From Hellea sp. (GTDB taxonomy: Bacteria; Pseudomonadota; Alphaproteobacteria; Caulobacterales; Maricaulaceae): a DNA stretch of 64,000 nt. Both the position numbers and the translations under genes were made by a program. The notes below the pieces were generated by a model. The model had not been told where the DNA came from and did not search any database. It saw nothing but the letters and a program-made list of their open reading frames with translations. Positions 3,599-45,397 of this stretch are shown one piece after another (within the stretch, counting starts at the first letter, position 1; each line of letters begins with the position of its first letter). The stretch covers positions 1,641 to 65,640 of the forward strand of contig JAQXEH010000018.1 in the NCBI GenBank assembly GCA_029250925.1, read 5' to 3'.

Positions 3599-3607
3599 CC
3601 TGAACTC

Positions 3608-5615: not shown

Positions 5616-5624
5616 TGAAATTCC

Positions 5625-6389
5625 TTAATATGCTGGACTAACTACAAGCCCATTATCAATCAGAAATTCAGCACCTGTAACAAATCGTGATTCATCAGAA
5701 GCCAAATATAAAATCATACTAGCTACATCTTTTGGTGTTCCAAGTGATCCCGCTGATAATACTCCTTGAGCCGGAACATCAATAGGTGCTTCACCAACTC
5801 TTCCTTGTGCAAACTGAACCATTGGTGTTTCAATGCCGCCAGCATGAACAGAATTACAACGTACAGGTAAAGACTCGGCTTTGCAGTAGATAGCCATAGA
5901 TTTTGTCATGGATCTCACAGCTCCTTTTGCAGCTGAATATGCGATCATAGGGTATCCCAAATGAGACGCAGTTGATGACATATTAACAATAGAACCACCG
6001 CTATTTTTTTGCAGCAGAGGCATAGAATATTTCATACCAAGAAATACACCTTCAGACATAATACTGTTAGAGATACGAAATTCTTTTAAAGTACAATTAA
6101 CAGGGTCTGACATAAAAACAATACCAGCATTATTTATCAAAATATCAAGGTTGCCATGTAACTCATCAATTTTATTTATAACGTCTATCCAATCTTGCTC
6201 AGAACTAACATCATGTTTGATGAATGTAGCAGATGGTCCTATCTCTGATACTGCTAATTTACCTTTTGCTACATCTACATCAGTAAGAATAACTTTCGCA
6301 CCCTCTTCGACTAAAATTTTTGCATCTGCAAAACCAAGACCCGATGCCCCTCCCGTGACTAAAGCAATTTTACCGGCTACTCTTCCCAT
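5625..6389 (-). CDS. Short-chain dehydrogenase/reductase (SDR)
   Basis: TGGASGLG, NNAG and YSAAK motifs. 9-nt spacer to the downstream SDR. Confidence 0.9.
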   Translation of the reverse strand: MGRVAGKIALVTGGASGLGFADAKILVEEGAKVILTDVDVAKGKLAVSEIGPSATFIKHDVSSEQDWIDVINKIDELHGNLDILINNAGIVFMSDPVNCTLKEFRISNSIMSEGVFLGMKYSMPLLQKNSGGSIVNMSSTASHLGYPMIAYSAAKGAVRSMTKSMAIYCKAESLPVRCNSVHAGGIETPMVQFAQGRVGEAPIDVPAQGVLSAGSLGTPKDVASMILYLASDESRFVTGAEFLIDNGLVVSPAY

Positions 6390-8557: not shown

Positions 8558-8590
8558 TAAAAAAAGCGCCCAAGTGTTACCTGGGCGCTT
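8558..8590 (-). terminator. Rho-independent terminator downstream of the TonB-dependent receptor gene
   Basis: Minus-strand transcript reads AGCGCCCA-ggtaacact-TGGGCGCT followed by TTTTTTT. An 8-bp GC-rich stem (8565-8572 / 8582-8589) is followed by a T-run. Confidence 0.8.
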
Positions 8591-8609
8591 AATAATTATT
8601 TAAAGGTCC

Positions 8610-10826
8610 CTAGAAAGAGTAACCTAATGTAACTCCAACTTCACGTCCTGCGACTAGCTCTTGCCAAGCAAACGCTCCAGCATCAAAAGCTCGTGAGACA
8701 CGACCATCTTTGTCTAATATATCAGTTCCATAAACAACAAGCTTAAGTTTATTTCCTGTATCCATTTCTTTGATGTAAGTCATGGATAAATCAAACTGTG
8801 TATGCGCCCCAATTGTGATATCAGGACCAGTTTGGAAACTATAAGTCTCAAAGCCTGCATTACCAAATTGCTCGCCGCGGTGGCTAAGTGTACCACTAAA
8901 GGTTAAATCACCACCAAAACTTGCAGAGTTGTGCTCTACTGTAAGACTTCCCATTTCGCTAGGAGCATAAATGATCTTAGCATCATCAGCAATATCACGG
9001 CCATCGAAGAGATACTCATCGAAATCAGCATCAAGGATGGAGAATGAGCCCCTGAATGTTAATGCATCCGTTGGCGTCCAAACACTTTCGATCTCAAGTC
9101 CATTATTGCTTGTCTTGGCAGCGTTTCTAACAAATGTGCAAGTAGCAGTATTTGCTAATCCGCATTCTGTACCATTTGTAACGACAAATTGCTGCTTGTC
9201 ATCATAGTTAGACATAAATGCAGTAACGTTAAGTTGCAAGTTATCTGATGGACGCGAACGTAACCCAAGCTCAAAGTTTTCAACTGTTTCTGAGTCGTAA
9301 GGTCCCGCTGTCAAAGGGTCACTACCACGGTTGTTGAAACCACCACTACGGTAACCTGTTGAATAAGATGCATAAACCATACCACCCTCAAATTTTCGCT
9401 TAGCAGAAAGTCTATAAGACAAGTTGTCATCACTATATTCCGGCGTAAGGTTTAATATGGCACCAGTGGCTGGAGTAGCTGTACGACCTGCACTATCAGC
9501 GAAACGAGTTAAATCTAACTCTTTAGACTCATCTGTATAACGGGCACCAGCTGAAATTGACCAGTTTTCACCGATATCATATGTGGCCTCACCAAATAAA
9601 GCCGTAGCTTCAGCGTCTTGAAGGGTTGTGAAGTTTGAACCAGGCCCAGAAGTTAAGTATGAGTCTGTCGACAGGTAGTATAATCCTGCAACAAAATTAA
9701 GCGGACCATCTAGATCAGAAATAAACTGCAGTTCATGAGATGACTGACTATATTCTTGCTCTCTTGTAACTGGATACAGTGGAGCTGGTGCTCCCCATGA
9801 ACTGAAAAAAGCATATTCTTCAAAATCCATGTGCCCAAATATATATTTAAGAGCAAACTTATCTTCAGTGTGATCAACATTTAATGTTATGTTTTCACCC
9901 TTAATTGTGCTTACTATTTGCTCACTTGCATTAGAAACGCGGTTACCACCAGCTCTTGAAATTGCACCGGAGTCGGCGTCACAACCTAGTGAGAAGAAAG
10001 CACAGAAAATACTGTCACCAGTACCAGTTGCTATTACATCAGCAGGCTGAGTATTGTGATCATACCAATCATACGAAAGAGTAGCAGTAGTTTTGTCTGT
10101 GAAGTCATATTTTAACGCAGCTGAAGCTGTTTGACTATCTCTCATTTTTGGGCGTTCATTATTAGTAACATTGAAGAGATGTGAATCTTGCTGTAGATTA
10201 CGATAGCTAACTTTTAAGCCTCCGTTTTCCCCTAAAGGCATATTTACTAAACCTTTAAGGTCAATACGGTCATGGCTTGCATAAGTGCCTTCAACCTTGC
10301 CTCCGAACTCACCCGTTGGAGCTGTTCGCTTTATGTTAATAACACCCGCAATTGTGTTACGTCCGTATAATGTACCTTGAGGTCCACGAAGAACTTCAAC
10401 GCTTTCTATGTCAAAAAAGTCGACGACAGCACCACTATTAGATGCCATAAATACGCCATCAACTGAAACACCTACAGTAGGTTCAAATGTTTTTTCTAAA
10501 TCATCAAAACCAATACCTCTGATAGAAGCTCCAAGTGCAGCACCTGATTGAGTAACTGTATGCAATTCAACATTTGGAATATGCTTTGCTACATCAAGTA
10601 TTGTTTGAACAGAACCTCGCTCTAGCTGTCCCTGGCTTAATGCTGAAACTGCAACTGGCACATCTTGTAATGATTCAGTACGTTTTCTTGCTGTAACGAC
10701 TATTTCATCAAGTCTTCCAGCTGTTTCAGTTGTTTCTTGTGCATAAACTCCTGTACTCATACCTGCTAAAGGTAAAGCAGATGCTAGTAAAAGAGCTTTT
10801 GCGCTTTTATTAATATTAAAATTCAT
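8610..10826 (-). CDS. TonB-dependent outer-membrane receptor
   Basis: Signal peptide MNFNINKSAKALLLASALPLAGMSTGVYA|QE, a plug domain with TonB-box-like DEIVVTARKR, a long beta-barrel, and a C-terminal aromatic residue (..TLGYSF). ATG at 10826 is preceded by GGGGAG. The track's start at 10886 looks like an over-extension. Confidence 0.9.
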   Translation of the reverse strand: MNFNINKSAKALLLASALPLAGMSTGVYAQETTETAGRLDEIVVTARKRTESLQDVPVAVSALSQGQLERGSVQTILDVAKHIPNVELHTVTQSGAALGASIRGIGFDDLEKTFEPTVGVSVDGVFMASNSGAVVDFFDIESVEVLRGPQGTLYGRNTIAGVINIKRTAPTGEFGGKVEGTYASHDRIDLKGLVNMPLGENGGLKVSYRNLQQDSHLFNVTNNERPKMRDSQTASAALKYDFTDKTTATLSYDWYDHNTQPADVIATGTGDSIFCAFFSLGCDADSGAISRAGGNRVSNASEQIVSTIKGENITLNVDHTEDKFALKYIFGHMDFEEYAFFSSWGAPAPLYPVTREQEYSQSSHELQFISDLDGPLNFVAGLYYLSTDSYLTSGPGSNFTTLQDAEATALFGEATYDIGENWSISAGARYTDESKELDLTRFADSAGRTATPATGAILNLTPEYSDDNLSYRLSAKRKFEGGMVYASYSTGYRSGGFNNRGSDPLTAGPYDSETVENFELGLRSRPSDNLQLNVTAFMSNYDDKQQFVVTNGTECGLANTATCTFVRNAAKTSNNGLEIESVWTPTDALTFRGSFSILDADFDEYLFDGRDIADDAKIIYAPSEMGSLTVEHNSASFGGDLTFSGTLSHRGEQFGNAGFETYSFQTGPDITIGAHTQFDLSMTYIKEMDTGNKLKLVVYGTDILDKDGRVSRAFDAGAFAWQELVAGREVGVTLGYSF

Positions 10827-10887
10827 TTTTATAGACTCCCCAATTGAATTAACCAATGTAATCCACCCAAGTGCCCCCAGTAACAAC

Positions 10888-10939
10888 TGACTTTTTAGAT
10901 AGTAATCAAAAATTAGGTAATTCTATGACTAAAAAGTCA
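10888..10939 (-). promoter_or_regulatory. 11-bp-arm inverted repeat (TGACTTTTTAG...CTAAAAAGTCA) in the leader of the TonB receptor gene
   Basis: Arms at 10888-10898 and 10929-10939 with a 30-nt spacer. A perfect TTGACA hexamer on the minus strand (10951-10956) lies just upstream. Confidence 0.3.
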
Positions 10940-10979
10940 CAATAGACTTTTGTCAAACAACCTTTCATATCGAGTGCTA

Positions 10980-12860
10980 TTAATTTTTAGAGGAGAAAAC
11001 TATTAAAGCATTACCAGGCATCATAGAGCCAAATGAATAACCAGAATTTACTATAACGTGACCATCATAGATAACAGGTCCATCAGACTCAATTGCTCCG
11101 CCCTTAGCAATTTCACCGTTTACAGAGACAAATTCTTTGTTTGTATTAAAATCCCAAATAATATCACCATTTAATGAATCATACGCTCGTAAATGTCCGT
11201 CGAAAGCCCCAGCGAATACCATGTCTTTTGTTGCAGTAACAGCAGCTGATAAGCCAGGATCACAAGCAGGTTCATCCTTGTCTTCACACACATCCACAGC
11301 TTCAGTTGCCCATAGGGTCTCACCAGATATAGGGTCCAATGCATATAAACCCGCACGACTTAATGCTTTATCAGACTCGCTATAGGCGGTATCAGCAATA
11401 GGTACAAAAATAGCCTTATTATCAGTCGCAATACCCCAATGAACCCCGCCACTAAAGCCTCCTCTACCCATTTTCTCACGCCACAAAAGGGCTCCATTAT
11501 TGTCAGGGTCTAATGCAAAAACATCGCCAGACTTCTGCCCTACTGCAATAATTTCTTTTCCACTTTTAGTTTTGATTAAAATAGGTGGTGCGCCAATATC
11601 AAGATCAGGTCCGTTCTCCTCAGGGCAATTTGGACCGCCACCTATAAAACAAGCCATATTCCATGCATCGCCGCTCAAAGCTTGATAATGCCACTTAATT
11701 TCTCCATCATCTAAACCAATTGCAAGAACAGAATCACTTGTTGATACTGCTGGCGAGGTATATGACTCCCCTGTACCGACATAAAGAACACCCCGTTTTT
11801 CATCAATAGTAGGACTATTCCATATAGGTACTCCGGCCGGATGAAAACGGCGCGCTCCCATTTCATTATAATCACCCGTGAATTTCGACTCCTCGGCTAT
11901 AGTATGAGTAGTCCATTTCGTATCGCCGTTTTTTATGTCCAGCTTAACAACACCGCCTTGAAAAGTGCAACATTCATATCCTGGATCTGCTGCAGAAGCC
12001 CACTCTTTAGAAGAGAGCGGCACATAAAGAAATTCTTTATATAATCTCGGCGATCCAGTCAGGGTAACGTCAGGGTGCTCACTCACAGATTTTCGCCAGA
12101 TTAACTCACCAGTTAAAGCATCTATTGAATAAACATTCCCCTTTATATCACCAAAGAGAGCAACTGTTTTACCCATACTCTCTGTTATATTTACGGCATT
12201 TCTGACTTCAGCATCAGCCTGAAAGGTCCATGTTGCGCAGCCAGTATCAAAATCAAGAGCAAAAACGCGACCATCCTGGCCACCTACTATGATATGGTTA
12301 GCAAAAATTACAGGCTGACTTCTTGCTCTTGAAGCATCTGGGTATGCAAAAGCCCACTTAAATGATAAATTTTCAATATTTTCTTTAGGTAGTTTAGCTA
12401 TTTTCTCAGAAATAAAGCGCGATCCATCTAACTTTAACCCCCAACCTTCAAAGACAGATTTTTTTTCCTTCGTCTTAATCATATTGGAGCTACACATTTT
12501 TACAGGTTTAGAGCTTTTGCGTGACCCTGCTAAATACATTGATAGGCTGTCAATTTCATTTTCCGTAAGATGCGCAGCTTGCTGTTTCATAACGCCAGAC
12601 ATTAGTGCCTGCTTTATATAGTCTGTATTATACAATTGAAATTCAATTAAATGAGGCGCTTTTGGAACTCCTCCTAAATGACAACTGGAACAATTTTCGT
12701 TAAATAATGTTTCCCCATCAATAGGTACCGTTTCTTCAATGAAAGCTACATCTGTTTTAGGTTCAACATTTAGCTCACTAGGCTGACATCCAAATAAAAT
12801 AGAAATAATCAAAATGAAAAAAATTTTAAAGAAACCAGGATACATATTTATACTACTCAA
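10980..12860 (-). CDS. PQQ-dependent dehydrogenase with N-terminal cytochrome c domain (quinohaemoprotein, PVA-dehydrogenase-like architecture), lipoprotein
   Basis: Lipobox ..ISILFG|CQPS, haem-c motif CSSCH about 30 aa later, then a ~480-aa beta-propeller with repeated PQQ-type W/G-rich blades. ATG at 12845 (MYPGFFK...) is the likelier start than TTG at 12860. Confidence 0.75.
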   Translation of the reverse strand: MSSINMYPGFFKIFFILIISILFGCQPSELNVEPKTDVAFIEETVPIDGETLFNENCSSCHLGGVPKAPHLIEFQLYNTDYIKQALMSGVMKQQAAHLTENEIDSLSMYLAGSRKSSKPVKMCSSNMIKTKEKKSVFEGWGLKLDGSRFISEKIAKLPKENIENLSFKWAFAYPDASRARSQPVIFANHIIVGGQDGRVFALDFDTGCATWTFQADAEVRNAVNITESMGKTVALFGDIKGNVYSIDALTGELIWRKSVSEHPDVTLTGSPRLYKEFLYVPLSSKEWASAADPGYECCTFQGGVVKLDIKNGDTKWTTHTIAEESKFTGDYNEMGARRFHPAGVPIWNSPTIDEKRGVLYVGTGESYTSPAVSTSDSVLAIGLDDGEIKWHYQALSGDAWNMACFIGGGPNCPEENGPDLDIGAPPILIKTKSGKEIIAVGQKSGDVFALDPDNNGALLWREKMGRGGFSGGVHWGIATDNKAIFVPIADTAYSESDKALSRAGLYALDPISGETLWATEAVDVCEDKDEPACDPGLSAAVTATKDMVFAGAFDGHLRAYDSLNGDIIWDFNTNKEFVSVNGEIAKGGAIESDGPVIYDGHVIVNSGYSFGSMMPGNALIVFSSKN

Positions 12861-12865
12861 TTGAA

Positions 12866-13888
12866 CTATATTTTACTTTTATAATTTGAAATTTTTCTGA
12901 CTTCGGCAACAATTCTTTCAACAGAAGGGACATAAGCCGCTTCCAAATTAGGAGCAGCTGGCACGGGAGTGTGCGGGGCTGTAATTTTACAAATCGGAGC
13001 TCTCAAGGAAGAAAAGGCTTCCGATGCTGCGATACTCGCTATTTCTGATGCATATGAGCATATAGGCGTTGATTCATCCACTACAGCAAGTCTGCCAGTT
13101 TTTTCTATACTATCCAATACTGTGTCCATATCAAAAGGCGAGAGAGTTCTTGGGTCAATAACCTCAACAGAGATACCCTCTTTTGATAATATTACCGCTG
13201 CTTTTTCGGCCAGAAGCGCCATTCTTCCAATTCCTACTACAGTTACATCATTACCCTCACAAACAACTCTAGCTTTGCCAAATTCTATTGTATATGCCTC
13301 ATCAGGAACTTCTCCTTCCTCAGCAAAAAGCATTTTATGCTCACAAAAAATTACTGGGTCATTATCTCGTATAGCCTGTATCAATAAACCTTTAGCATCA
13401 TATGGCGTTGTAGGGACCACAACCTTCAAACCGGGTATGTGCGCAAATATAGGGTAAACTGCTTGTGAGTGCTGCGGCCCAGCACCAACTCCAGCACCAA
13501 TCATAGTTCTTATAACCATTGGAGCTCCTTTTTGGTTTCCGAACATATAACGAAACTTTGCAGCTTGATTATAAATTTGATCAAAACAAACTCCAAAAAA
13601 ATCAGCGAACATAAGCTCCGCAATTGGCCGCAACCCAGTGAGTGAAGCCCCTGCAGCAGCACCCATGATTGCGGACTCAGAAATTGGCGTATCAATTATT
13701 CGTTCTGCTCCAAATTCAGTGTATAATCCAGCAGTGAGTCCCATAACACCGCCAGATTTCTCTCCCTCGCCTCCTGACCCCCCTCGGCCGCCAGCTACAT
13801 CTTCTCCCAATAAAATTACATTTGGGTCTAACCGCATTTCAACTCTCATGGCGTCCGTAATAGCTTCACGTAAAGTCATTTTTGTCAT
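12866..13888 (-). CDS. TPP-dependent E1 component, beta subunit (second copy)
   Basis: Paralog of 2585-3598 (EDVAGGRGG...IIDTPISE...FRYMFGN...HSQ). 5-nt spacer to the PQQ/cytochrome c gene. Confidence 0.85.
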   Translation of the reverse strand: MTKMTLREAITDAMRVEMRLDPNVILLGEDVAGGRGGSGGEGEKSGGVMGLTAGLYTEFGAERIIDTPISESAIMGAAAGASLTGLRPIAELMFADFFGVCFDQIYNQAAKFRYMFGNQKGAPMVIRTMIGAGVGAGPQHSQAVYPIFAHIPGLKVVVPTTPYDAKGLLIQAIRDNDPVIFCEHKMLFAEEGEVPDEAYTIEFGKARVVCEGNDVTVVGIGRMALLAEKAAVILSKEGISVEVIDPRTLSPFDMDTVLDSIEKTGRLAVVDESTPICSYASEIASIAASEAFSSLRAPICKITAPHTPVPAAPNLEAAYVPSVERIVAEVRKISNYKSKI

Positions 13889-13899
13889 TCCAAATTACC

Positions 13900-14868
13900 T
13901 CAATAACTTTCGTAAACATTTTCTTCTAAGGATGATAAGGGTGGCAAAGGCGAATTAAGTGCTAATTTAATTGCATCATCAACCTCTTTTTCAATCAAAG
14001 AGTTAATTTCTTCGAATTCAACATTTTCCATTAATTCCTTTTCAAGTACTTTTTGTTTGAATATCTCTAATGGGTCCTTATTAGCTTTTATTTCCTTAAC
14101 CTCAGTTTTGCTCCGATAAGCTTGAGGATCACCTTCATAATGCCCATACCAACGTAACGCTTCACATTCTATGCTAGTAGGCCCATCACCTGACCTTGCG
14201 CGCTCAACTGCCTCTCTCATAACATCATGAACTGCAAAAAAATCTGTGCCATCAACCTTAACAGCAGGCATACCAAAGCCGCTAGATCTGGTTGTTATGT
14301 CCACAGCACCGCAATGATAATCTATACCTGTAAATTCCGCATATCCATTATTTTCATATACAAATATAACTGGAAGCTTTAATACAACTGCAAGGTTCAT
14401 TGCTTCAAATACAGTGCCCTGATTAGAAGCACCGTCACCTATGAATGCTACTGCAACAGCTTTATTTTTTAAAGTTTTTGCTGCTAAGGCAGCACCCACT
14501 GCGAGTGGCGGCGAACCTCCGACTATAGCATTTGCCCCTAACATGCCTTTCGACAAATCAGCAATATGCATTGAGCCGCCCTTACCCTTGCAAAGGCCGT
14601 CTTCTCTGCAATAGATTTCGAGGGCCATGTCTTTTACATCACAACCTTTAGCTATACAGTGACCATGACCCCTATGGGTACTACCTATGTTGTCCGTATT
14701 ACTTAAATGCATACATACGCCAGTAGCTATTGCTTCTTGTCCGCAATATAAATGCACGAAACCAGGCATTTCTCCTTTTTGAAATTCTGTTCGCATTCGT
14801 TCTTCGAACACGCGTATTCTTTTCATAGTTGTGTATGCTTCTCGTAAATCATCTCTACTTAGCTGCAT
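13900..14868 (-). CDS. TPP-dependent E1 component, alpha subunit (second copy, AcoA type)
   Basis: GFVHLYCGQEAIATG, STHRGHGHCIAKGCD, GKGGSMHIAD and GMLGANAIVG match the signature of 3608-4585. Confidence 0.85.
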   Translation of the reverse strand: MQLSRDDLREAYTTMKRIRVFEERMRTEFQKGEMPGFVHLYCGQEAIATGVCMHLSNTDNIGSTHRGHGHCIAKGCDVKDMALEIYCREDGLCKGKGGSMHIADLSKGMLGANAIVGGSPPLAVGAALAAKTLKNKAVAVAFIGDGASNQGTVFEAMNLAVVLKLPVIFVYENNGYAEFTGIDYHCGAVDITTRSSGFGMPAVKVDGTDFFAVHDVMREAVERARSGDGPTSIECEALRWYGHYEGDPQAYRSKTEVKEIKANKDPLEIFKQKVLEKELMENVEFEEINSLIEKEVDDAIKLALNSPLPPLSSLEENVYESY

Positions 14869-14940
14869 ATTTTCCTCCCATGAAAGAATTAGTGCTAATG
14901 CTTTTACTTTATAGCTGTCTAAATTGTCAGGTTTTTTAAA

Positions 14941-16893
14941 TTAATTATCTAAATTTAAATCATCAGGTAAGGCATAGGCCACAACATAATCACCGGGAGG
15001 CGTTTGAAACCATAGGTGCTGCCCAGAGGTGATAACTACATGTTGCTTTCCGCCGGCCATATAAGTCATCGGAGTAGTTTGTCCACCAGCAGGAAGCTTG
15101 TCCTTCCATAACTCCTTACCATTGGATGCATCGAATGCCCTTAAGTAATTGTCCTGCGCAGCGGCAATGAAAATAAGACCAGACCTGGTTGCAATTGGAC
15201 CCCCAATATTAGGGGTTCCCAAGTTTGTATTTATCGGCAATGGAATTGGCAATTTATCCCTAATTGAACCTAGAGGAACATCCCAAACAATCTCACCGCT
15301 ATCAACATTTATTGCAGTTAATCCTCCCCAAGGAGGGGGCGAACAGGGAGCTCCAAACGGTGATAATAACCACTCTCTTTTTACCGTATAGGGCGTTCCG
15401 TTTTGAGGTGAAATATCATCTTTACTTGTTAAAGACACAGTCTGAGTTGAATCTTTATCAGCCTTAGGGATCATAGTGATTACTTGAGCAACTCTAGATG
15501 TATTAACAAATAGCATTCGGCGCTTATGGTCAAAACTGTTTCCACCCCAGTTAGCTCCACCAGCAGTAGAGGGATAGAAAATAGTTCCCTGTTCGCTTAT
15601 TGGCGTGAACGTTCCCTCTGACCTGTATTTCGAAATTTTGCGCCTACAAGCGATATAGTCTATAGGTGTAAAACCAAACGCGTCCTTAGGGTTTAATCTA
15701 TCGGGTACTAACTGAGGCGGCTTAGAAGGTATAGGTTGTGTTTTTACGGAATTATCATCGCTTATGGAAGTAACCGGTATATCGATTTCATTTAAAGGAA
15801 ATATAGGTTCTCCTGTTTCTCTATTAAAGGTGAAAACATATCCCTGCTTAGTCGTTTGGATTACCGCAGGTATTTGAATGCCATTCACATTAACTTCCAG
15901 CAGAGTAGGCTGTGAAGGCAGGTCATAATCCCATATATCATGCCTGACCAATTGCTGTGCCCAAACTAATTCACCAGATGAGGCCTTAAGAGCTACCAGA
16001 GAGTTAGCCCATCGATTGTCGCCTGGTCGAAGCCCCCCATAAAAATCTGGAGATGGCGACGAGGTCGGGAGGTAGACAAGGTCACGCCGCTCATCAACAG
16101 CCATCGCAGTCCATACATTACCACCTCCGACATTTAATTCTTTTGGTATTGGATCAAATTCCCACACTTTATTTCCAGTTTTCGCGTCAAAAGCCTTTAC
16201 CGTTCCAAAAGGAGCATCTGCGCGATAACCGTCTACAATTGTGGATCCAACAACAATGACATTATTAACAACAGCAACTGGTGAATTTAGTCTTATTTCA
16301 CCTTCGAAAGCCGCAGGCCTGGACTGCTCTATATGTACTGCTCCATTGTCACCAAAGTCCTTGCACAACTTTCCGTCGCCTGCATCAATTGCGATAACCC
16401 TCAAGTCATTAACGGGTATAAATAAACGATGTTTACAATGCGTTTCCTCGATACCCTTTTTGTCAACCCACTGACTAATTCCCCGGCATACATATTGAAA
16501 CGGAAGCTTTAAACCAGTTGATACATTAGGATCAAATACCCACTTTTCCTCACCTGTTACAGGATTTAACGCTATGATCCTATTAAATGGAGTACACACA
16601 ATTAATTTTCCATCTGCAATTATTGGAGTGTTTTCATTGGAGCTATTAATGTTCATTTCGGCAGAACGGCGATCAAGCTCGCCTGTTCTATAAGTCCAAG
16701 CAACTTCAAGGCTTTTTATATTTTTTAGGTTAATTTGGCTATGATTAGAATATCTAGTACCCGAGTCAGAGCCCCCGTATTGAGGCCAATCTGAAGCTCC
16801 ATCATGGGCTTGTGAAATTGTGTTTAAAAGGAATAATAAAACACAAAAAAATAAAATTCTAGAAACAATAAAACTTTTAGCTAGAAAGCGCAT
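14941..16893 (-). CDS. Periplasmic PQQ-dependent dehydrogenase (glucose/quinate/polyol dehydrogenase-like propeller)
   Basis: Sec signal peptide (..NTISQA|HD), DWPQYGGSDSGTRYS start typical of quinoprotein dehydrogenases, 8-blade-length propeller. No vicinal Cys-Cys and no N-terminal TM bundle. Confidence 0.8.
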   Translation of the reverse strand: MRFLAKSFIVSRILFFCVLLFLLNTISQAHDGASDWPQYGGSDSGTRYSNHSQINLKNIKSLEVAWTYRTGELDRRSAEMNINSSNENTPIIADGKLIVCTPFNRIIALNPVTGEEKWVFDPNVSTGLKLPFQYVCRGISQWVDKKGIEETHCKHRLFIPVNDLRVIAIDAGDGKLCKDFGDNGAVHIEQSRPAAFEGEIRLNSPVAVVNNVIVVGSTIVDGYRADAPFGTVKAFDAKTGNKVWEFDPIPKELNVGGGNVWTAMAVDERRDLVYLPTSSPSPDFYGGLRPGDNRWANSLVALKASSGELVWAQQLVRHDIWDYDLPSQPTLLEVNVNGIQIPAVIQTTKQGYVFTFNRETGEPIFPLNEIDIPVTSISDDNSVKTQPIPSKPPQLVPDRLNPKDAFGFTPIDYIACRRKISKYRSEGTFTPISEQGTIFYPSTAGGANWGGNSFDHKRRMLFVNTSRVAQVITMIPKADKDSTQTVSLTSKDDISPQNGTPYTVKREWLLSPFGAPCSPPPWGGLTAINVDSGEIVWDVPLGSIRDKLPIPLPINTNLGTPNIGGPIATRSGLIFIAAAQDNYLRAFDASNGKELWKDKLPAGGQTTPMTYMAGGKQHVVITSGQHLWFQTPPGDYVVAYALPDDLNLDN

Positions 16894-17423
16894 TACGAAG
16901 CTCTTTCATAACCAGCATTCCACATGTGCCTGAGAACCTTCCATTGACCATCAGCACCTCTTACAACTAAATCATTGTATTTTAGGTTATTTGATAGTTT
17001 ACTCAATGCAGCTTTAGAGTCTGTTATTAACTTAGTTTCACTTTTGAGTGTAATTTCTATTATGTAATCATATCTTACTTGTGCAATATCATTGCCGATA
17101 AACTCTATGTCCCAATCAGATAGATTTATAATTTTATAGGAAGCATTGTTAAACACTGGAATTAGAAATTCACCATATGCCTCTAGTCCAACGATGTCAG
17201 GTGCTGATTGCGGAACCATTCTAATCTTATTGTGAAGTACTGAGAGGTACCCCTCCCTATCACCAGCCTCAACCGCTTCATTCCAAGTGCTATAAACATT
17301 TAATATTGCCTCTTTATCAACAGCCCTAGTATCCATTTTAGTTGGCGCCTGTATTTCTGGACTGCACGCGTAACAAAACACCAAAAATAATATCAAAATA
17401 TATTTCTTTAATATATTAGTCAT
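16893..17423 (-). CDS. NTF2-like (SnoaL/DUF4440-type) lipoprotein
   Basis: Lipobox FCY|ACS. A ~150-aa alpha+beta cone-like sequence (ILNVYSTWNEAVEAGDREGYLSVL...). The stop overlaps the ATG of the downstream PQQ dehydrogenase (TAATG at 16891-16895). Confidence 0.6.
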   Translation of the reverse strand: MTNILKKYILILFLVFCYACSPEIQAPTKMDTRAVDKEAILNVYSTWNEAVEAGDREGYLSVLHNKIRMVPQSAPDIVGLEAYGEFLIPVFNNASYKIINLSDWDIEFIGNDIAQVRYDYIIEITLKSETKLITDSKAALSKLSNNLKYNDLVVRGADGQWKVLRHMWNAGYERAS

Positions 17424-17532: not shown

Positions 17533-19482
17533 ATGAAAAATGAGATACAATCAATGTCATTAAAAAAATTATCATTAAAAAGTTTCACATTACTTTTTTT
17601 ACTTATATGTTTTTTTTCTTACCCACTCACAAGCTACAGTCAGACAATTGAAAAAAAACCATACTCTCCTGCTTTAAACAATAAGCACCCAGACAAGGTT
17701 TTATGGGGTGATCTTCATTTACATTCAAATATTTCAATGGATGCGTTTAACTTAGGCAATGAGTCTTTAACACCAGGTGATGCATATAAATTTGCCCGAG
17801 GAGAAAGTATTGATAGCACTTCAGGGGGGCCTGCAAAACTAGCAAGACCATTAGACTTTCTGTCGGTAACAGACCATGCAGAATATCTCGGCGTAATGGC
17901 TGGCTTAACAGACCCGAAAGTATCAAATTGGAACGTATCTAATGGTTCAGAAAAGAGTTCCCTCAAAGAAGCATTGTTAAACTCTCAGGTGGGGTACAAA
18001 TGGAATGAATATATAAAAAACTCAGAGCAATCTAAGATTCTTGATGAATTTATTGCTGCAGTAAATAAATCTGGGGAAGCAGAGCTTATCCCCGAAAAGT
18101 TACAAAAGTCAGTTTGGGAAAAAATTGCAAGCATCGCAGACGAGTATAATGATCCAGGGAAATTTACAGCACTTATCGGATATGAGTGGACTACAATATA
18201 TAAAGGAAACAATCTTCATAGAGTTGTTTTATTTAAAGATGGTAAAGAAAAAGCATCTCAAATACGTCCATTTTCTGCGATAGATAGTCAAAATCCCGAA
18301 GATCTATGGAAGTCTCTGGAACAATATGAGTTAGTAACTGGAGGTGAAGTTTTAGCAATACCTCACAATGGAAACCTCAGTAATGGTGCTATGTTTGCAG
18401 AGATGGATTTAGACGGTAATCCCATTGATCTAAATTATGCAGAAATGCGGTCAAAGTGGGAACCTATCTACGAAGTAACTCAAGTTAAAGGGGATGGTGA
18501 AACACATCCAAAAATTTCTCCTAATGATGAATTTTCCGACTTTGAAACATGGGATACTGGAAATATTGCAATGTCTGAAGAAAAAGAAGATTACATGCTT
18601 AAGTATGAATATGCTAGATCAGCATTAAACATAGGCCTGAAAATTAAAAACAACATAGGAGTTAACCCTTTTAAATTTGGGATGATTGGAAGTACCGATT
18701 CTCATACGGCACTTGCAACTTCAGATAACGATAACTTTTTTGGGAAGTTTCCTGGGTCAGAACCAACAATTGCAAGGTTTACAAATCAAATGGCTTCAAA
18801 CCTGTGGCCGAATATAACAATCAGCTCCTCTGGCTATACAGCTGTTTGGGCCAAGGAAAATACACGTGAAGAAATATTCAACGCACTCAAAAGAAAAGAA
18901 GTGTATGCAAGCACAGGCCCTAGAATTGCACTAAGATTATTCGGCGGTTGGGATTTAGATAATGAGGATCTGCATGCCTCTAATTTTGCTGAAAGGTCCT
19001 ATGGAAAAGGAGTGCCCATGGGAGGCACTTTAATAAAATCAAAAATGAAAAATGATGCACCCACATTTCTCGTAAGAGCTATGCGGGATCCAATAGGAGC
19101 AAATCTTGATCGTGTTCAAATTATTAAGGGTTGGTTAGATGAAAACAACATGATGCATGAAAAAATATACAACGTATCTTTATCAGATAATCGTAAAGTT
19201 AGTAATAGCGATATCGTCGAACCTGTAGGGAATACTGTAAACTTAGAGGATGCAACATATTTAAATAATATTGGCTCCGCTGAACTAACAGCGGAATGGA
19301 AAGATCCAAATTTTAATAAACAAATTGATGCTTTCTACTATGTTAGAGTCCTTGAAATACCTACCCCTAGATGGTCTACATATGATGCCGTTAGGTTTGG
19401 AATCGATAGACCAGAGAGCGTCCCATCAACATTACAGGAAAGAGCGTATAGCTCACCGATATGGTACGATTCTACAAAATAA
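17533..19482 (+). CDS. Secreted DUF3604-family protein (PHP-like metal-dependent hydrolase fold, function unknown)
   Basis: Signal peptide, then LWGDLHLHSNISMDAF, IGYEWT, AIPHNGNLSNG, GSTDSHT and C-terminal ERAYSSPIWY. These strings are characteristic of DUF3604. Confidence 0.75.
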   Translation: MKNEIQSMSLKKLSLKSFTLLFLLICFFSYPLTSYSQTIEKKPYSPALNNKHPDKVLWGDLHLHSNISMDAFNLGNESLTPGDAYKFARGESIDSTSGGPAKLARPLDFLSVTDHAEYLGVMAGLTDPKVSNWNVSNGSEKSSLKEALLNSQVGYKWNEYIKNSEQSKILDEFIAAVNKSGEAELIPEKLQKSVWEKIASIADEYNDPGKFTALIGYEWTTIYKGNNLHRVVLFKDGKEKASQIRPFSAIDSQNPEDLWKSLEQYELVTGGEVLAIPHNGNLSNGAMFAEMDLDGNPIDLNYAEMRSKWEPIYEVTQVKGDGETHPKISPNDEFSDFETWDTGNIAMSEEKEDYMLKYEYARSALNIGLKIKNNIGVNPFKFGMIGSTDSHTALATSDNDNFFGKFPGSEPTIARFTNQMASNLWPNITISSSGYTAVWAKENTREEIFNALKRKEVYASTGPRIALRLFGGWDLDNEDLHASNFAERSYGKGVPMGGTLIKSKMKNDAPTFLVRAMRDPIGANLDRVQIIKGWLDENNMMHEKIYNVSLSDNRKVSNSDIVEPVGNTVNLEDATYLNNIGSAELTAEWKDPNFNKQIDAFYYVRVLEIPTPRWSTYDAVRFGIDRPESVPSTLQERAYSSPIWYDSTK

Positions 19483-19542: not shown

Positions 19543-20079
19543 ATGAATAGTATGAGTGATCGAGAAGCAATACATGACATATTATGTCTATACACACATG
19601 CCATAGATCGCAGGCGTTGGGATATAATGTCAAAATTATTTCACCCCGATGCCGTTTTTCTCTTTGGAGAAGTATCTGGTGATTGGCAAGGTTTTGTCGA
19701 GCAAGCAAAGGCTATAATAGACCCAATGCCATCAACACATCATCAATTAGGAAACACAATTTATCACTTTGATGGGAATTCAGCAATTACGGAAACATAT
19801 TGCACAGCCACACATATTATTCCTGCTGACTATCCTGATGGATTCCCTATGAAACCAACAGGAAAAAGGTATTTATGTACAGTTGGGCTGCGCTATATCG
19901 ACAAATTTGAAAAAAGAGGTCATGAGTGGAGGATAGCAAGTCGCAATGGAGTTTTTGATTGGAGAAACGATGAGGACTTCAATGATGGCGGTGTTTTAGA
20001 TGGCCCGCCTGAAATGCTTGGAAAGCATGATGACTCAGATCCTTCTACAATCATAACAAAAAAATGGAGAACCAATTAA
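19543..20079 (+). CDS. NTF2-like protein (SnoaL_4 / ring-hydroxylating dioxygenase beta-subunit-like fold)
   Basis: REAIHDILCLYTHAIDRRRWDIMSKLFHPDAVF is the typical N-terminal helix pattern of SnoaL_4 proteins. 178 aa. Confidence 0.65.
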   Translation: MNSMSDREAIHDILCLYTHAIDRRRWDIMSKLFHPDAVFLFGEVSGDWQGFVEQAKAIIDPMPSTHHQLGNTIYHFDGNSAITETYCTATHIIPADYPDGFPMKPTGKRYLCTVGLRYIDKFEKRGHEWRIASRNGVFDWRNDEDFNDGGVLDGPPEMLGKHDDSDPSTIITKKWRTN

Positions 20080-22286
20080 TTCAATTTCGAGAGTTTAACG
20101 GGTATTGCACTCATAATCGGGATTCCAGTTATTGGGTCAAAATTCTTATCATTAAAAGATAATCGGCCAGTATTACCACCTGAATTAATTGGATCATCTT
20201 CTTCATCAGGGTTTGTTCCCCATCCGTGAGGAACTGCTAAACAACCTACTTTTACATCTGCCGCAGAATAACTCTTGCATTTTATAGAAGAACGTTCAGA
20301 TATTATTTCAACTAAGTCACCATCATTAATACCTAACTTCAGCATATCACTTGGATTTATATATGCTGGATGATGAGGCAACCTTTTCTTAAGGCTTGAT
20401 GATTCATGCCATGCAGAATTTAAAGCATCTTTTAAACGCCTTGAAATCAGTCGAAAAGGAAATGCGTCAGCAATAGGACTACCTTCAAATGTTAAAGCTA
20501 TTTCCTTAAGTTTTGAAATCATAATTGGATGACCAATATTTAAATATCCTGGCCAATCATCAGGCCTTTTCTGTATTGTGTCAGGCTCACGGTCAAATCT
20601 TTTACCCTTAAAAGAATTTAAGTCTTTTCGTGCCTCCGTATAAGAAACTGGTGAGCCTTTTAATATAGCTTCCCAAACAGATATTGGGTCTGGAAAAGGT
20701 TCATCCGTTTTAATAATTGTTTGATTTTGAGAGGCTTCATTCGGATCAACAAAAGCCATTGAATTTATTGTTAAATTTAAACCTAGCTCTTTTGCCATTT
20801 CATAAAAAAACTCTTGTTCTTCGCAAAGATTTGAACCCTCAGGCACATCTAATATAGGATCGCAAATCTGCCCATAAGTATCTTCGTAGCCCCAACCATT
20901 TCCAAAGTTACCAAGTAATTCATTCGGAGCAGAAGTAGAGTATCTCTCATAGTGTATCTTCGGAGCAATTATATAGTCTGATAAAATTCCTGTCTTTGTT
21001 TTTCGCGGGTCAAAACAAGCAAGAAGTTCAAGTTTTTTCATTGCTTTAAATGTTTTTATCTGATCTGGCCATGCTAACATAGGATTTCCACCAAGTACTA
21101 AAAGAGCTTTTACTTGCCCTTTTCCTGGGGTTAATATTTCATCCGCCAGAGCTCCAGTTGGTAAACCAGCAGTAGATTCTTCTAGGTCCCTTACCCTAAG
21201 TTTTTTACCAAACCCAGTGGCGGGAGTAGATCCAGATCCTGCCGCAATAGGAGGAAAACCATTTACAAATACACCTACATTTTCTTTTAATTCACCTTCT
21301 CGTCTCCAATGCCCCATAAGCGACATAATTACCTTACCAAGGTATTCAGATAGATTTCCTGCGCCTGACATATTTGGACCGGTGCCAAGGCTTATATCAG
21401 CCTTTTTAAAAGAACCATAAAGTCTAGCAGCTTCGACAAGTTCCTCTTCAGTAACTCCAGCAAATTCGGCTACCTTTTTAGGCGTAAAAGGCTGAACCGC
21501 TTTAACAAGATCAGAAAAACCTTTGGTCTCTTTTTTTATAAAGTCTTTATCATGATAATCTTCCTGGATTATTGTTCTGATAATACAGGCCAATATTTCT
21601 CCATCGTAGCCAGGGTTGCACTGCAAATGAAGATCAGCCTGTTTTGCCGTTTCAGTAACACGAGGATCAATGACAATTAATTTCATACCTCTTTTTTTAG
21701 CTTCATGTAAATTTTTTGCTGGATTTGCCCCAACTCCGCCAAGCATTGAAACAAGAGGGTTAGAACCCATGACTAAGAGGCCATCCCATTCTTTATGTCG
21801 ATAGCCACCAGCCAACCATATACCATGAAAGGCTGCTGTTATTGCTTTTCCTGGCTGGTCTATGGTAACACTTGTGAAGATCATCTGGCTTTTTATGGCT
21901 TTCATAAAGGCCAAAGCAAACGCATGAGAAGGAAAAGTGTTATATCCAAATGTTCCTATATATAATGCTACACTATCTGGACCATGTTCGCTTATAATCA
22001 ACTCAATTTTTTTTGCCATTTCCTTAGCAGCAGTTTTCCACTCATAATCAACATATTCGCCTGAAGATTTTTTAAGTGAGTGCTTCAAGCGAGAAGGATA
22101 ACTATGGTAATTTTGTAAATCTCTGCCTTTAGAGCAAGAAAATCCTGCATATGCTGGATTATCTTTATTGCCGTGGGTGGCGACAGGTTTACCATCTTTA
22201 AAATCAACGATTAATCCACACTGCGCATGACAAGCCCTGCAAATTACATGTTTTTGCTCTAAAGACAAAATCTTATACCTTCTCAA
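20076..22286 (-). CDS. Molybdopterin (bis-MGD) oxidoreductase family protein, cytoplasmic, with N-terminal 4Fe-4S domain
   Basis: C-x2-C-x3-C-x26-C (CRACHAQC...FSC) at residues 17-51. ~700-aa molybdopterin and C-terminal dinucleotide-binding regions. No h-region or Tat signal. Confidence 0.8.
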   Translation of the reverse strand: MRRYKILSLEQKHVICRACHAQCGLIVDFKDGKPVATHGNKDNPAYAGFSCSKGRDLQNYHSYPSRLKHSLKKSSGEYVDYEWKTAAKEMAKKIELIISEHGPDSVALYIGTFGYNTFPSHAFALAFMKAIKSQMIFTSVTIDQPGKAITAAFHGIWLAGGYRHKEWDGLLVMGSNPLVSMLGGVGANPAKNLHEAKKRGMKLIVIDPRVTETAKQADLHLQCNPGYDGEILACIIRTIIQEDYHDKDFIKKETKGFSDLVKAVQPFTPKKVAEFAGVTEEELVEAARLYGSFKKADISLGTGPNMSGAGNLSEYLGKVIMSLMGHWRREGELKENVGVFVNGFPPIAAGSGSTPATGFGKKLRVRDLEESTAGLPTGALADEILTPGKGQVKALLVLGGNPMLAWPDQIKTFKAMKKLELLACFDPRKTKTGILSDYIIAPKIHYERYSTSAPNELLGNFGNGWGYEDTYGQICDPILDVPEGSNLCEEQEFFYEMAKELGLNLTINSMAFVDPNEASQNQTIIKTDEPFPDPISVWEAILKGSPVSYTEARKDLNSFKGKRFDREPDTIQKRPDDWPGYLNIGHPIMISKLKEIALTFEGSPIADAFPFRLISRRLKDALNSAWHESSSLKKRLPHHPAYINPSDMLKLGINDGDLVEIISERSSIKCKSYSAADVKVGCLAVPHGWGTNPDEEDDPINSGGNTGRLSFNDKNFDPITGIPIMSAIPVKLSKLN

Positions 22287-22309
22287 TTTTATTTATTAGC
22301 TCATTATAT

Positions 22310-23461
22310 TTAAGAGCTAAGTTGCTTTTTTTTGATTTTTTTTGCTAAGGACCACTTATGAACTTCAGTAGGTCCATCATAAATTCTAAAAGCTCTTATC
22401 TCTCTAAAGAACTGCTCTACAATTGTATCGCCGCTAACACCCATTCCGCCCATTACTTGAACGCATCTATCAGCAACTCTAAATAAAGCCTCAGAAACAG
22501 CGACTTTTGCCATTGAACTCTCAACATTTCCATGTTCTCCGCGATCTAATGCATCAGCGCACCAGTCAATTATTAGTTCACTTTGAGTTAAGTCTATCTT
22601 GTTCTCTGCCAACATGAAGCCTACTCCCTCATGGTCTACCAAAAGTTTGCCAAATGCTTCACGCTTGCATGCATACTCTATAGCAATCTCTTGTGCTCTA
22701 TGACCTAAACCTGTCCATCTCATACAATGAGATAACCTAGCAGGAGCAAGTCTTATTTGAGCGAGACGAAAACCTTCACCAGGTTCTCCAAGCATATTAT
22801 CAGAAGATACCCTAAGGTCCTTAATAAGAACTTCCGAATGCCCACCAGGCATTGAACTATCAATTGTATCTAATACTCTTTCTATTCGAACAGATGAGTT
22901 TGGTAAATCAACAAGAAACAAGCACGCTCCCTCATTAGAATTAGCCATAATGATTCCAACTTTTGCTCCATTAGCTCCTGTAATAAAAGTTTTCCGACCA
23001 TTTATAACCCAATGATTACCATCAAGAACGGCAGTGGTTTTCATCATTGACGGATCAGATCCTGCTCCACTTATTTTTGATGGTTCAGTCATGAAAAAAG
23101 CTGACCGAGCAATTCCTTTTTTTAATGGGTCTAAGAAATGTTTCTTCTGTTGCGCACTAGCTGCCTTACCCAAGAGAAACATGTTTCCTTCATCAGGAGC
23201 AAATGTATTACAAGCAACTGAACCCAAGGGTGACAAGCCCGTAATTTTTAATAATGAAGCGGTGTCTCTTTGTGAGCGGTGGTCACCATTTTTTAATATA
23301 TGCGGAGTCATAAAACCAGCAAGACGAGCTTTATCCCTTAATTCGTTGACCAGGTCTTCATCAGGACCATGGCCACCATTTCTGGGGTCCTTCTCATAAG
23401 GAACCACTTCATTTCTTATGAAGAATTCAATATCATTTAATAATTGGGAAAAATCAGACAT
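22310..23461 (-). CDS. Acyl-CoA dehydrogenase, FadE2/ACAD10-ACAD11-like
   Basis: ACAD three-domain length. C-terminal ...FRIYDGPTEVHKWSLAK resembles the DGP(D)EVH signature of the FadE2/ACAD10/11 branch (recognised from memory, not searched). Confidence 0.75.
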   Translation of the reverse strand: MSDFSQLLNDIEFFIRNEVVPYEKDPRNGGHGPDEDLVNELRDKARLAGFMTPHILKNGDHRSQRDTASLLKITGLSPLGSVACNTFAPDEGNMFLLGKAASAQQKKHFLDPLKKGIARSAFFMTEPSKISGAGSDPSMMKTTAVLDGNHWVINGRKTFITGANGAKVGIIMANSNEGACLFLVDLPNSSVRIERVLDTIDSSMPGGHSEVLIKDLRVSSDNMLGEPGEGFRLAQIRLAPARLSHCMRWTGLGHRAQEIAIEYACKREAFGKLLVDHEGVGFMLAENKIDLTQSELIIDWCADALDRGEHGNVESSMAKVAVSEALFRVADRCVQVMGGMGVSGDTIVEQFFREIRAFRIYDGPTEVHKWSLAKKIKKKQLSS

Positions 23462-24562: not shown

Positions 24563-24564
24563 AT

Positions 24565-36030: not shown

Positions 36031-36435
36031 TTACTCTTTTCCTACCCGAAATTCGAAAATAGGAAGAGTATCACCATCAGGTTTCTCAAGAATTGAAGTT
36101 TTTAATTCCATTTTCTGATTAATTTTAAATTTTGTATCGCTTACCTGAAGTCTAGACTTTACTTTAATCCCGCATGGCATTTCAATGAAACCTACACCAT
36201 ATATCTCAAAATTTTCTTTGTTCTCATGCAAAAAATATGGCGCTTTGGGTGAGATATTTTGTGTTGTCCATGACCATAACCTTCCTGTAGTTCCAAAATT
36301 TTTATTCTCTATTTCAACTGATGCGCAGTTGGAGCAAGATTTTACCTTAGGAAAAAAATATTCCTTACAGTTACTACACTGTGACCCCATTAGGCCATTA
36401 TCACCAAAAACTAGATCTTCATATACTTTGTCCAT
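36031..36435 (-). CDS. DUF35 zinc-ribbon/OB-fold protein (thiolase partner)
   Basis: CSNC...(13)...CSNC rubredoxin-like ribbon followed by an OB-fold-length C-terminus. Its stop abuts the thiolase start (36031/36030). Confidence 0.8.
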   Translation of the reverse strand: MDKVYEDLVFGDNGLMGSQCSNCKEYFFPKVKSCSNCASVEIENKNFGTTGRLWSWTTQNISPKAPYFLHENKENFEIYGVGFIEMPCGIKVKSRLQVSDTKFKINQKMELKTSILEKPDGDTLPIFEFRVGKE

Positions 36436-36539
36436 GACCGAGTTCTAGCACCTTTTGATAATAAGTCGCCCCCTTCAAAAAGTCAGTATAATAGATTATC
36501 AAGATGTGGTTGATGCTAATATAAAGGGTGGTTGATATA

Positions 36540-44209: not shown

Positions 44210-45397
<1,188 letters not shown>

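Follow-up and report, generated by a model that had tools for sequence, protein, structure and literature searches.

Known systems and how the locus compares

The closest described precedent for the system studied here comes from Pseudomonas putida KT2440, where the quinoproteins PedE and PedH oxidize (2S,3S)-2,3-butanediol to acetoin and the acetoin dehydrogenase system cleaves the acetoin (PMC8427195). The locus we examined appears to follow the same logic, with a quinoprotein that would convert a diol to an acyloin outside the cytoplasm and an acetoin dehydrogenase type (Aco-type) enzyme that would cleave it inside. It lies on the minus strand, from 17423 to 8564, of a 64,000-nucleotide (nt) stretch of DNA from Hellea sp., an alphaproteobacterium (GenBank assembly GCA_029250925.1, contig JAQXEH010000018.1, positions 1,641 to 65,640), which we call the window. 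In it, the two subunits of a thiamine pyrophosphate (TPP) dependent E1 component sit between the genes of two exported pyrroloquinoline quinone (PQQ) dehydrogenases. From gene order and comparison with other genomes, we lean towards reading 17423-8564 as one operon for an acyloin-type catabolic route that is divided between two compartments.

There are two differences from P. putida. No linkage exists there between the ped and aco genes, whereas the corresponding genes of the window are interleaved in one apparent operon. The quinoproteins also differ: those of P. putida are of the ethanol dehydrogenase type (Ca/lanthanide), whereas the window has a quinohaemoprotein that resembles polyvinyl alcohol dehydrogenase (PVADH) and a truncated relative of the membrane-bound glucose dehydrogenase (mGDH). 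A preliminary description of this DNA had suggested that diols or polyols are oxidized outside and the resulting acyloins or diketones cleaved inside, and that the arrangement had not been characterized. The coupling is plausible and the linkage is conserved, but the concept had already been demonstrated in P. putida, so what is new is the gene arrangement and not the pathway logic. We found no description of the arrangement in the literature searched. Searches that combined acetoin dehydrogenase with PQQ and a TonB receptor, or PVA dehydrogenase with acetoin or with TonB, returned nothing, and a search for PQQ, acetoin dehydrogenase and Halieaceae returned only the P. putida precedent.

Three other systems are useful for comparison. 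The canonical acetoin dehydrogenase (AcoA/AcoB as E1, AcoC as E2, AcoL/Lpd as E3) shares with the window pair the type of TPP E1, the signature motifs and both of the histidines discussed below. Unlike the canonical aco operon, the window operon has no E2, E3, lipA, regulator or NAD-dependent butanediol/acetoin dehydrogenase, and exported PQQ dehydrogenases flank its E1 pair instead, together with an NTF2-like lipoprotein and a TonB-dependent outer-membrane receptor (TBDR). The polyvinyl alcohol (PVA) dehydrogenase PvaA (EC 1.1.2.6), a distant relative, has the same architecture as the window quinohaemoprotein, an exported protein with haem c and a PQQ propeller. However, the operon of PvaA contains an oxidized-PVA hydrolase and a cytochrome c, whereas the window gene is next to E1beta and the TBDR, so that a TPP E1 stands where PvaA has a beta-diketone hydrolase as its partner. 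Finally, the mGDH-like enzyme aligns with the whole periplasmic propeller of Escherichia coli Gcd, including an equivalent of the catalytic Asp466, but it has a cleavable signal peptide in place of the N-terminal membrane domain of five helices.

Structure and transcription of the likely operon

The first gene of the operon encodes a 176-aa putative lipoprotein that is NTF2-like (DUF4440/SnoaL_3) by its Pfam match (17423-16893), and its stop codon overlaps the start of the next gene as TAATG. This second gene (16893-14941; PF01011) encodes the 650-aa PQQ dehydrogenase of the mGDH family, without the five-transmembrane domain. A gap of 72 nt leads to the Aco-type E1alpha, the TPP-binding subunit (14868-13900; PF00676, 288 bits), and a gap of 11 nt to the Aco-type E1beta (13888-12866; Transket_pyr and Transketolase_C). 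The PVADH-like quinohaemoprotein, a 626-aa lipoprotein with a cytochrome c domain and a PQQ_2-type propeller (12860-10980; Pfam PQQ_2, PQQ and Cytochrome_CBB3), begins 5 nt later if it uses a TTG start, and an alternative ATG is found 15 nt further in. The last gene of the likely operon is the TBDR, with plug and barrel domains (10886-8610). Directly after its stop codon there is a hairpin resembling an intrinsic terminator (8590-8564; 12 bp, 7 of them GC, with a T-run), the only strong terminator of the stretch; no terminator-like site was found in the gap between the quinohaemoprotein and the TBDR.

Every detail of the minus-strand order reported earlier agrees with the open reading frames (ORFs) and their translations, and Pfam and NCBIfam agree with it gene by gene. 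This includes the absence of signal peptides from the E1 subunits, which are cytoplasmic, and the export of both PQQ enzymes. The genes of the block are as the preliminary description had them, but its end at the quinohaemoprotein was too early, and we include the TBDR and the terminator at 8564-8590 in the probable operon.

A promoter scan of the locus gave counts equal to the shuffled expectation and so carries no information, and comparison of the intergenic gaps with Rfam gave no credible riboswitch or other RNA element. A 162-aa ORF on the plus strand (12969-13457), antisense to E1beta, has tblastn matches elsewhere that are a shadow of the conservation of E1beta; we do not consider it a gene.

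Near-identical sequence was present in marine metatranscriptomes, and the assembled contigs bridge three of the junctions, which favors co-transcription, with the reservation that the RNA origin of two of the runs is presumed. One contig (13268-15051) crosses the 72-nt gap from E1alpha into the mGDH-like gene, another (12864-14878) spans E1alpha and E1beta, and two more (12776-13048 and 12773-13499) cross the junction between E1beta and the quinohaemoprotein. None of the four runs covers the gap between the quinohaemoprotein and the TBDR at all. The only E2 gene of the window (1392-2576) and the E1 genes beside it are also covered by contigs from these metatranscriptomes, to a similar depth. 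In one run (X25) the contig matches 12864-14878 and then has 27 nt unlike the window (in the region 14869-14905, upstream of the E1alpha start); in another run (X26) the sequence runs on from E1alpha to the PQQ gene. A different gene may be located upstream of E1alpha in some strain variant.

The E1 pair is of the acetoin dehydrogenase type

E1alpha nests inside the clade of canonical aco E1alphas. Its identity is 57% to the E1alpha of an aco/2,3-butanediol operon on an Acinetobacter plasmid (gene order lipA, E1alpha, E1beta, E2, lpdA, acetoin reductase, 2,3-butanediol dehydrogenase), 51% to that of an operon with a sigma-54 regulator in Enterococcus faecalis, and only 35% to a gene annotated pdhA. 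The motifs STHRGHGHCIAKG (14682-14644) and GKGGSMHIAD are identical in canonical aco E1alphas; at the same sites pdhA has ATYREHGHALARG and GRGGSMHLFS. The first of these motifs and GSMHIAD had been quoted as the acetoin dehydrogenase signature when the pair was called Aco-type, and both are indeed in E1alpha; identities, signature motifs and clade placement all bear out that assignment. The TPP motif GDG...NN is intact at 14439-14341. Also conserved are the histidine of WYGHYEGD in E1alpha and that of QHSQ in E1beta, which we take to be lipoyl-directed residues from the E1 structures of pyruvate dehydrogenase (PDH) and branched-chain 2-oxoacid dehydrogenase (BCKDH).

A different reading starts from the models of PDH. 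The E1 pairs might be components of 2-oxoacid dehydrogenases, with the PQQ enzymes making 2-hydroxy or 2-oxo acids from primary alcohols or 1,2-diols in a route similar to alpha-oxidation. The best-scoring NCBIfam families for the pair are PDH E1alpha and E1beta, E1beta passes the cut-off of subfamily NF006667 (331.6 vs 321), and the closest solved structure to E1alpha is human PDH E1alpha (1e-61). However, E1alpha falls below the cut-off of the PDH E1alpha equivalog TIGR03182 (333.9 bits, cut-off 393.85), its identity to pdhA is far below the 51-57% to aco sequences, and its motifs are those of aco. We consider 2-oxoacid chemistry very improbable for this locus.

Conservation of the linkage

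We did two surveys of related loci. The first was seeded with E1alpha and covered 80 loci, which were searched by tblastn with the window proteins and ordered on a tree of concatenated E1alpha and E1beta. The second was seeded with the quinohaemoprotein and covered 40 loci outside Hellea, each flanked on either side by 5 kb or more of sequence. The block of PQQ and E1 genes, whose presence in relatives the preliminary description had proposed to check, turned out to be conserved, with the linkage found in dozens of genomes.

Two contigs from Hellea metagenome-assembled genomes (MAGs) have the same gene order with 93-100% protein identity. An independent Logan contig (L173) has the window order at 69-90% protein identity: molybdenum cofactor (Moco) enzyme, SnoaL4, DUF3604, NTF2 lipoprotein, mGDH-like, E1alpha, E1beta, quinohaemoprotein, TBDR. 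Among the 40 loci of the second survey, 20 have E1alpha and E1beta within 5 kb of the quinohaemoprotein, 15 have an mGDH-like gene by it, 13 have the NTF2 lipoprotein gene directly adjoining it and 11 have an E2.

On the E1 tree, the operon pair and the second E1 pair of the window (2585-4585) belong to different clades. Clade 1, that of the second pair, has about 35 loci, mostly from Steroidobacteraceae, Woeseiaceae and unclassified Gammaproteobacteria, in the order SDR-SDR-ThuA-(Rieske oxygenase, ferredoxin)-E1alpha-E1beta-E2-PVADH-like quinohaemoprotein, where SDR stands for short-chain dehydrogenase/reductase. In clade 2, that of the operon pair, the nearest relative (L003) is 72% and 80% identical and comes from a genome with 65% GC; it has the same genes at 60-80% identity, including the quinohaemoprotein, the mGDH-like gene and the TBDR, and an E2 is absent from the 10 kb around it. 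In Luminiphilus syltensis and Pseudohaliea rubra the order is E1alpha-E1beta-E2-quinohaemoprotein, with the mGDH-like gene close by. Three loci (L007, L010 and L054) have E1alpha-E1beta-mGDH-like followed by the quinohaemoprotein on the opposite strand, and two (L062 and L068) have NTF2 lipoprotein-quinohaemoprotein-E1alpha-E1beta. Many other Luminiphilus have DUF3604-SDR-TBDR-E1alpha-E1beta-quinohaemoprotein-E2, therefore with the gene of a periplasmic enzyme between E1beta and an E2 that is complete (lipoyl, peripheral subunit-binding (PSBD) and catalytic domains). Among all the loci compared, six sphingomonad pairs (L012, L014, L017, L020, L026 and L042) have no linked E2. TBDRs flank the cluster in many relatives.

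The searched collection lists an E1alpha of 63% identity in 826 of its blocks. It occurs on a 1.45-Mb marine contig with 34% GC (L172), beside E1beta and a quinohaemoprotein with 45% identity, and the surroundings include homologues of the window thiolase (59%), DUF35 protein, medium-chain dehydrogenase/reductase (MDR), acyl-CoA dehydrogenases (ACADs), Rieske oxygenase and acyl-CoA ligase.

We also noticed a third and more divergent clade of E1alpha and E1beta (40-46% identity; L088, L102, L103 and L106) in MAGs of Pseudomonadales/'Azophilus'. It has RFYDHVGR where the others have RWYGHYEGD, adjoins a PVADH-like gene, and has no E2 in the loci seen.

The plasmid-borne PVADH-like genes of EbN1, PP1Y and Niveispirillum have no E1 nearby, so the linkage is frequent and not universal. 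Judging from the loci compared, it is deep and far beyond chance, with a fluid gene order. That fluidity bears on the possibility that the genes share no pathway and their juxtaposition is a by-product of horizontal transfer during assembly of the region. The closest cluster outside Hellea is in a 65% GC genome, compared with about 39% in the window, and the order is shuffled between lineages, both of which would fit. But the linkage survives this rearrangement across Alpha- and Gammaproteobacteria, three E1 clades and a streamlined genome, and in the window itself the genes are separated by only 5-72 nt and their junctions are crossed by transcript contigs. We give accidental juxtaposition almost no credence.

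The probable E2 partner of the E1 pair

There is no E2 or E3 gene within 8564-17423, in agreement with what had been reported, and we identified no E3 in the annotated ORFs of the catabolic island described below. The only E2 of the window, with a lipoyl domain, PSBD and catalytic domain by Pfam (1392-2576, minus strand), is about 8 kb away beside the second E1 pair. This pair, also Aco-type and on the minus strand, consists of E1beta (2585-3598) and E1alpha (3608-4585), and two SDR dehydrogenases (4851-6389, minus strand, by Pfam) are upstream of it; we refer to these genes as cluster 1. With 52% identity between their alpha and 55% between their beta subunits, the two pairs are paralogues of long standing, as opposed to the recent duplicates that had been considered as an alternative.

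Cluster-1 E1alpha has GEG and E-I-N in place of the usual GDG and E-N-N of the TPP motif, and its homologue on Paracoccus versutus pTAV3 has GGG and E-L-N. The Mg-ligand Asn (the second N) is kept in the cluster-1 protein by alignment with human PDH E1alpha.

Calling the pair E2-less is accurate for this operon but does not describe the family, in which an E2 is present in about half of the related clusters and is a full one in L. syltensis and P. rubra. An E2/E3 pair beside comparable clusters had been named as something that would speak against a special arrangement, and this was found in part: in Halieaceae an E2 follows either E1beta or the quinohaemoprotein, and other clusters are E2-less.

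Several observations suggest that the operon pair still works with an E2. The lipoyl-directed histidines of E1alpha and E1beta are invariant in all of the E2-less pairs compared, as they are in canonical aco operons, and E2-linked and E2-less pairs are interleaved in the E1 tree. In a neighbor-joining tree of 89 E2 sequences, the window E2 has as its sister group the Halieaceae E2s found after clade-2 E1 pairs. The E2s that belong to the clade-1 relatives of its adjoining E1 pair are placed apart from it. With 37 taxa, the grouping with the Halieaceae clade-2 E2s was recovered in 168 of 200 bootstrap replicates (84%). The simplest reading is that one E2 (1392-2576) serves both Hellea E1 pairs and, for genomes without a linked E2, that the E2 is supplied from another locus.

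The exported proteins

PF01011 covers the full length of the mGDH-like enzyme with 719 bits, and the protein has a Sec signal ending in ...ISQA/HDG. Against TIGR03074 it scores 666.8, below the cut-off of 832.65, with a match confined to model positions 152-783. Residues 167-795 of E. coli Gcd, the periplasmic propeller, align with it at 39% identity. The equivalents of Gcd Asp466, Lys493 and Trp404 are kept (D322, the K of TTKQG and the W of NVWT), whereas His262 is Tyr and Asn355 is Gly; in published work on Gcd, Asp466, Lys493 and Trp404 are the catalytic base and PQQ-site residues, and His262 belongs to the substrate site. Since both His262 and Asn355 are replaced, glucose is an unlikely substrate.

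The quinohaemoprotein has a lipobox (LFGC25) and a haem motif (C57-S-S-C60-H61; 12692-12678). It is 31% identical over 612 aa, from end to end, to a PQQ/haem gene on a plasmid of Sphingopyxis sp. 113P3, a PVA degrader, in a PVA-type locus with the order hypothetical-PQQ-MFS-cytochrome c. This plasmid gene may not be the characterized pvaA, because the 113P3 genome paper puts the pva operon on the chromosome (PMC4611681). The vicinal Cys297-Cys298 and the haem site are conserved in the alignment. Homologues at 50-56% identity carry the JGI name "polyvinyl alcohol dehydrogenase (cytochrome)", which is an annotation only, and the natural substrate is surely not PVA. Sequence searches of the PDB with both PQQ proteins found only distant relatives among alcohol and methanol dehydrogenases (ADH/MDH).

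The N-terminus of the NTF2 lipoprotein, MTNILKKYILILFLVFCYAC, is a lipoprotein-type signal, and the family has about 40 invariant residues. An AlphaFold2 model of the protein has a pLDDT of 88.6 and its fold matches only generic NTF2/ketosteroid-isomerase-like proteins, so no function can be assigned from it. For the TBDR, we tried the PQQ importer PqqU and ruled it out (29.7 bits against a cut-off of 1200).

Divergent from the operon, on the plus strand, is the gene of an exported DUF3604 protein (17533-19482; PF12228, 794 bits) with a signal peptide and an HxH motif, seen as HLH near the N-terminus. A sequence search of solved structures found no relative. The gene is in the same position in L173 and is upstream of the E1/quinohaemoprotein clusters of Luminiphilus, and because of this recurrence it may encode a periplasmic hydrolase of the same pathway.

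The proposed pathway and the surrounding island

The pathway that we propose would begin with a substrate carrying secondary alcohol or vicinal diol groups, which would enter through the TBDR. In the periplasm it would be oxidized by the quinohaemoprotein lipoprotein and the soluble mGDH-family dehydrogenase, perhaps assisted by the NTF2-like lipoprotein as a binder, isomerase or dehydratase. The product, an alpha-hydroxyketone (or diketone), would be taken up into the cytoplasm, where the Aco-type E1, as an alpha2-beta2 tetramer, would cleave the acyloin and pass the acyl group to a lipoyl-E2, giving an acyl-CoA and an aldehyde. In Hellea the E2 would be 1392-2576, shared with the paralogous pair, and an E2 encoded elsewhere would take its place in genomes that lack a linked one. 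The direction of flow, the acyloin intermediate, the sharing of the E2 and the substrate are what we infer; the genes present, the export signals, the Aco type of the E1, the conserved linkage, the transcript contigs over the junctions and the kinship of the E2 are what we observed.

A number of points weigh against this proposal. The operon encodes no inner-membrane transporter for the presumed intermediate. PVADH-family enzymes turn arrays of 1,3-diols into beta-diketones, which then go to hydrolases and not to TPP enzymes (PMC11644497), so the periplasmic product need not be an acyloin. The cluster-1 SDRs share only 31-34% identity with acetoin reductase and stay below every NCBIfam equivalog cut-off, and neither result supports a role as butanediol or acetoin dehydrogenases, which we had considered for them. 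The transcription evidence consists of assembled contigs from four metatranscriptome runs, two of them only presumed to be RNA, with DNA carry-over possible, and the grouping of the E2s comes from neighbor-joining on long branches. In addition, no E2 turned up to a distance of 8 kb in 9 of the 20 quinohaemoprotein loci with E1, or to a distance of 9 kb from the E1 pair of the 1.45-Mb marine genome.

Because of these nine loci and the marine genome, an E2-independent role is possible. The E1 pair would then work as a TPP acyloin lyase or carboligase, or reduce another acceptor, and the absence of E2 would be functional. The six sphingomonad pairs fit as well, and Aco E1 alone is capable of acetoin cleavage with artificial acceptors and of carboligation in vitro. 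Against this, the lipoyl-directed histidines are invariant, E2-linked and E2-less pairs are mixed in the tree, the window has an E2 of the matching clade 8 kb off, and we see no positive support in the sequences; to our knowledge, every bacterium also has housekeeping lipoyl-E2s. We think that E2-free operation is doubtful, with only a slight chance of being right. For the E2-less sphingomonad pairs we also considered the bile-salt side-chain route of Sphingobium sp. Chol11 and dropped it, as two preprints on it do not contain the terms TPP, acetoin, PQQ or 2-oxo.

The first 43 kb of the window form one catabolic island, and housekeeping genes begin at about 45 kb. The island has genes for a P450, two Rieske oxygenases, an acyl-CoA ligase, several SDRs, a LuxR regulator and esterases/lipases. 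This company matters for what may be the plainest explanation of the operon, catabolism of acetoin and 2,3-butanediol (or a short vicinal diol), with the PQQ enzymes acting on stereoisomers of butanediol in the periplasm and the E1 as an ordinary acetoin:acceptor oxidoreductase that uses the nearby E2. E1alpha is as close to the E1alpha of the butanediol operon, at 57% and with identical motifs, as canonical aco E1alphas are to one another, and the P. putida scheme would be the precedent, with its genes fused here into one operon. However, simple butanediol use does not account well for two paralogous Aco-type systems in one island, or for the company of a TBDR, P450, Rieske oxygenases, lipase/esterase, acyl-CoA ligase, ACADs and thiolase/DUF35, a partner set that recurs in L172. 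The SDRs are not BudC or acetoin reductase equivalogs, and no AcoR- or AcoX-type gene was seen. We consider plain butanediol catabolism fairly unlikely.

For the acyloin route, the P450, Rieske oxygenases, MDRs, heteromeric ACADs, thiolase/DUF35 and esterases nearby point to a larger hydroxylated substrate, which suggests a hydroxylated compound of the lipid, isoprenoid or alicyclic type and not plain 2,3-butanediol. No steroid ring-cleavage genes were recognizable in the window. A thiolase of the SCPx type is paired with a DUF35/ChsH2 zinc-ribbon/OB protein at 34882-36435, and since the thiolase is 59% identical to the one beside the L172 E1 pair, the two proteins may belong to the same pathway as the E1.

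We made some further observations on the island. At 20076-25797 there is a cytoplasmic-type molybdopterin oxidoreductase (Fe4S4, Molybdopterin and Molydop_binding domains; no equivalog) followed by three consecutive ACADs, two of which are without one of the three standard ACAD domains and resemble heteromeric ACADs. The pair of Moco enzyme and SnoaL4 is conserved beside the cluster in L173 and the Hellea MAGs. Three paralogous MDRs (ADH_N_2/ADH_zinc_N, of the alkenal/enone reductase type) are found at 30776-31774, 32666-33679 and 36528-37547, and a homologue with 46% identity is in the E1/quinohaemoprotein cluster of L172. The LuxR-family regulator (29163-29933) has a domain like those that bind autoinducers, and a 50% homologue is located 13 kb from a PVADH-like gene on the megaplasmid of Novosphingobium sp. 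PP1Y (L083). A fusion of an N6/N4 DNA methylase with a RAMA domain is encoded at 44252-45397, where the island gives way to the housekeeping genes.

Significance

What the locus adds to the P. putida precedent is that both halves of the pathway are in one conserved operon, with quinoprotein families other than those of P. putida. If the coupling is real, it would be a compact module, conserved across phyla, that joins periplasmic quinoprotein oxidation, with electrons going to the respiratory chain, to cytoplasmic C-C cleavage by a TPP enzyme. It would also give a natural role to many proteins that are now annotated "polyvinyl alcohol dehydrogenase", and would provide a case in which the sharing or borrowing of an E2 core by E1 components could be tested.

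A broader reading is that the E1 and the PVADH-like enzyme, often without a dedicated E2, are the core of a widespread marine pathway, one that even the streamlined 1.45-Mb bacterioplankton genome carries. The E1 would use the housekeeping PDH E2 or act as an E2-independent TPP C-C lyase, and the substrates would be periplasmically oxidized polyols, isoprenoids or lipid-derived dissolved organic matter (DOM). We offer this as a speculative extension with a small chance of being correct. If it were true, oxygenated DOM would have a new point of entry into catabolism. The carriers include kelp- and plankton-associated Hellea, Halieaceae/Luminiphilus, Steroidobacteraceae, Woeseiaceae and a very widespread small-genome marine bacterium, the one whose E1alpha occurs in 826 blocks. 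With such a distribution of carriers, the substrate could represent a class of marine organic matter that is important in quantity. Some carriers are in culture (Luminiphilus syltensis NOR5-1B, Pseudohaliea rubra DSM 19751 and Luminiphilus sp. nBUS_07), which makes direct tests possible.

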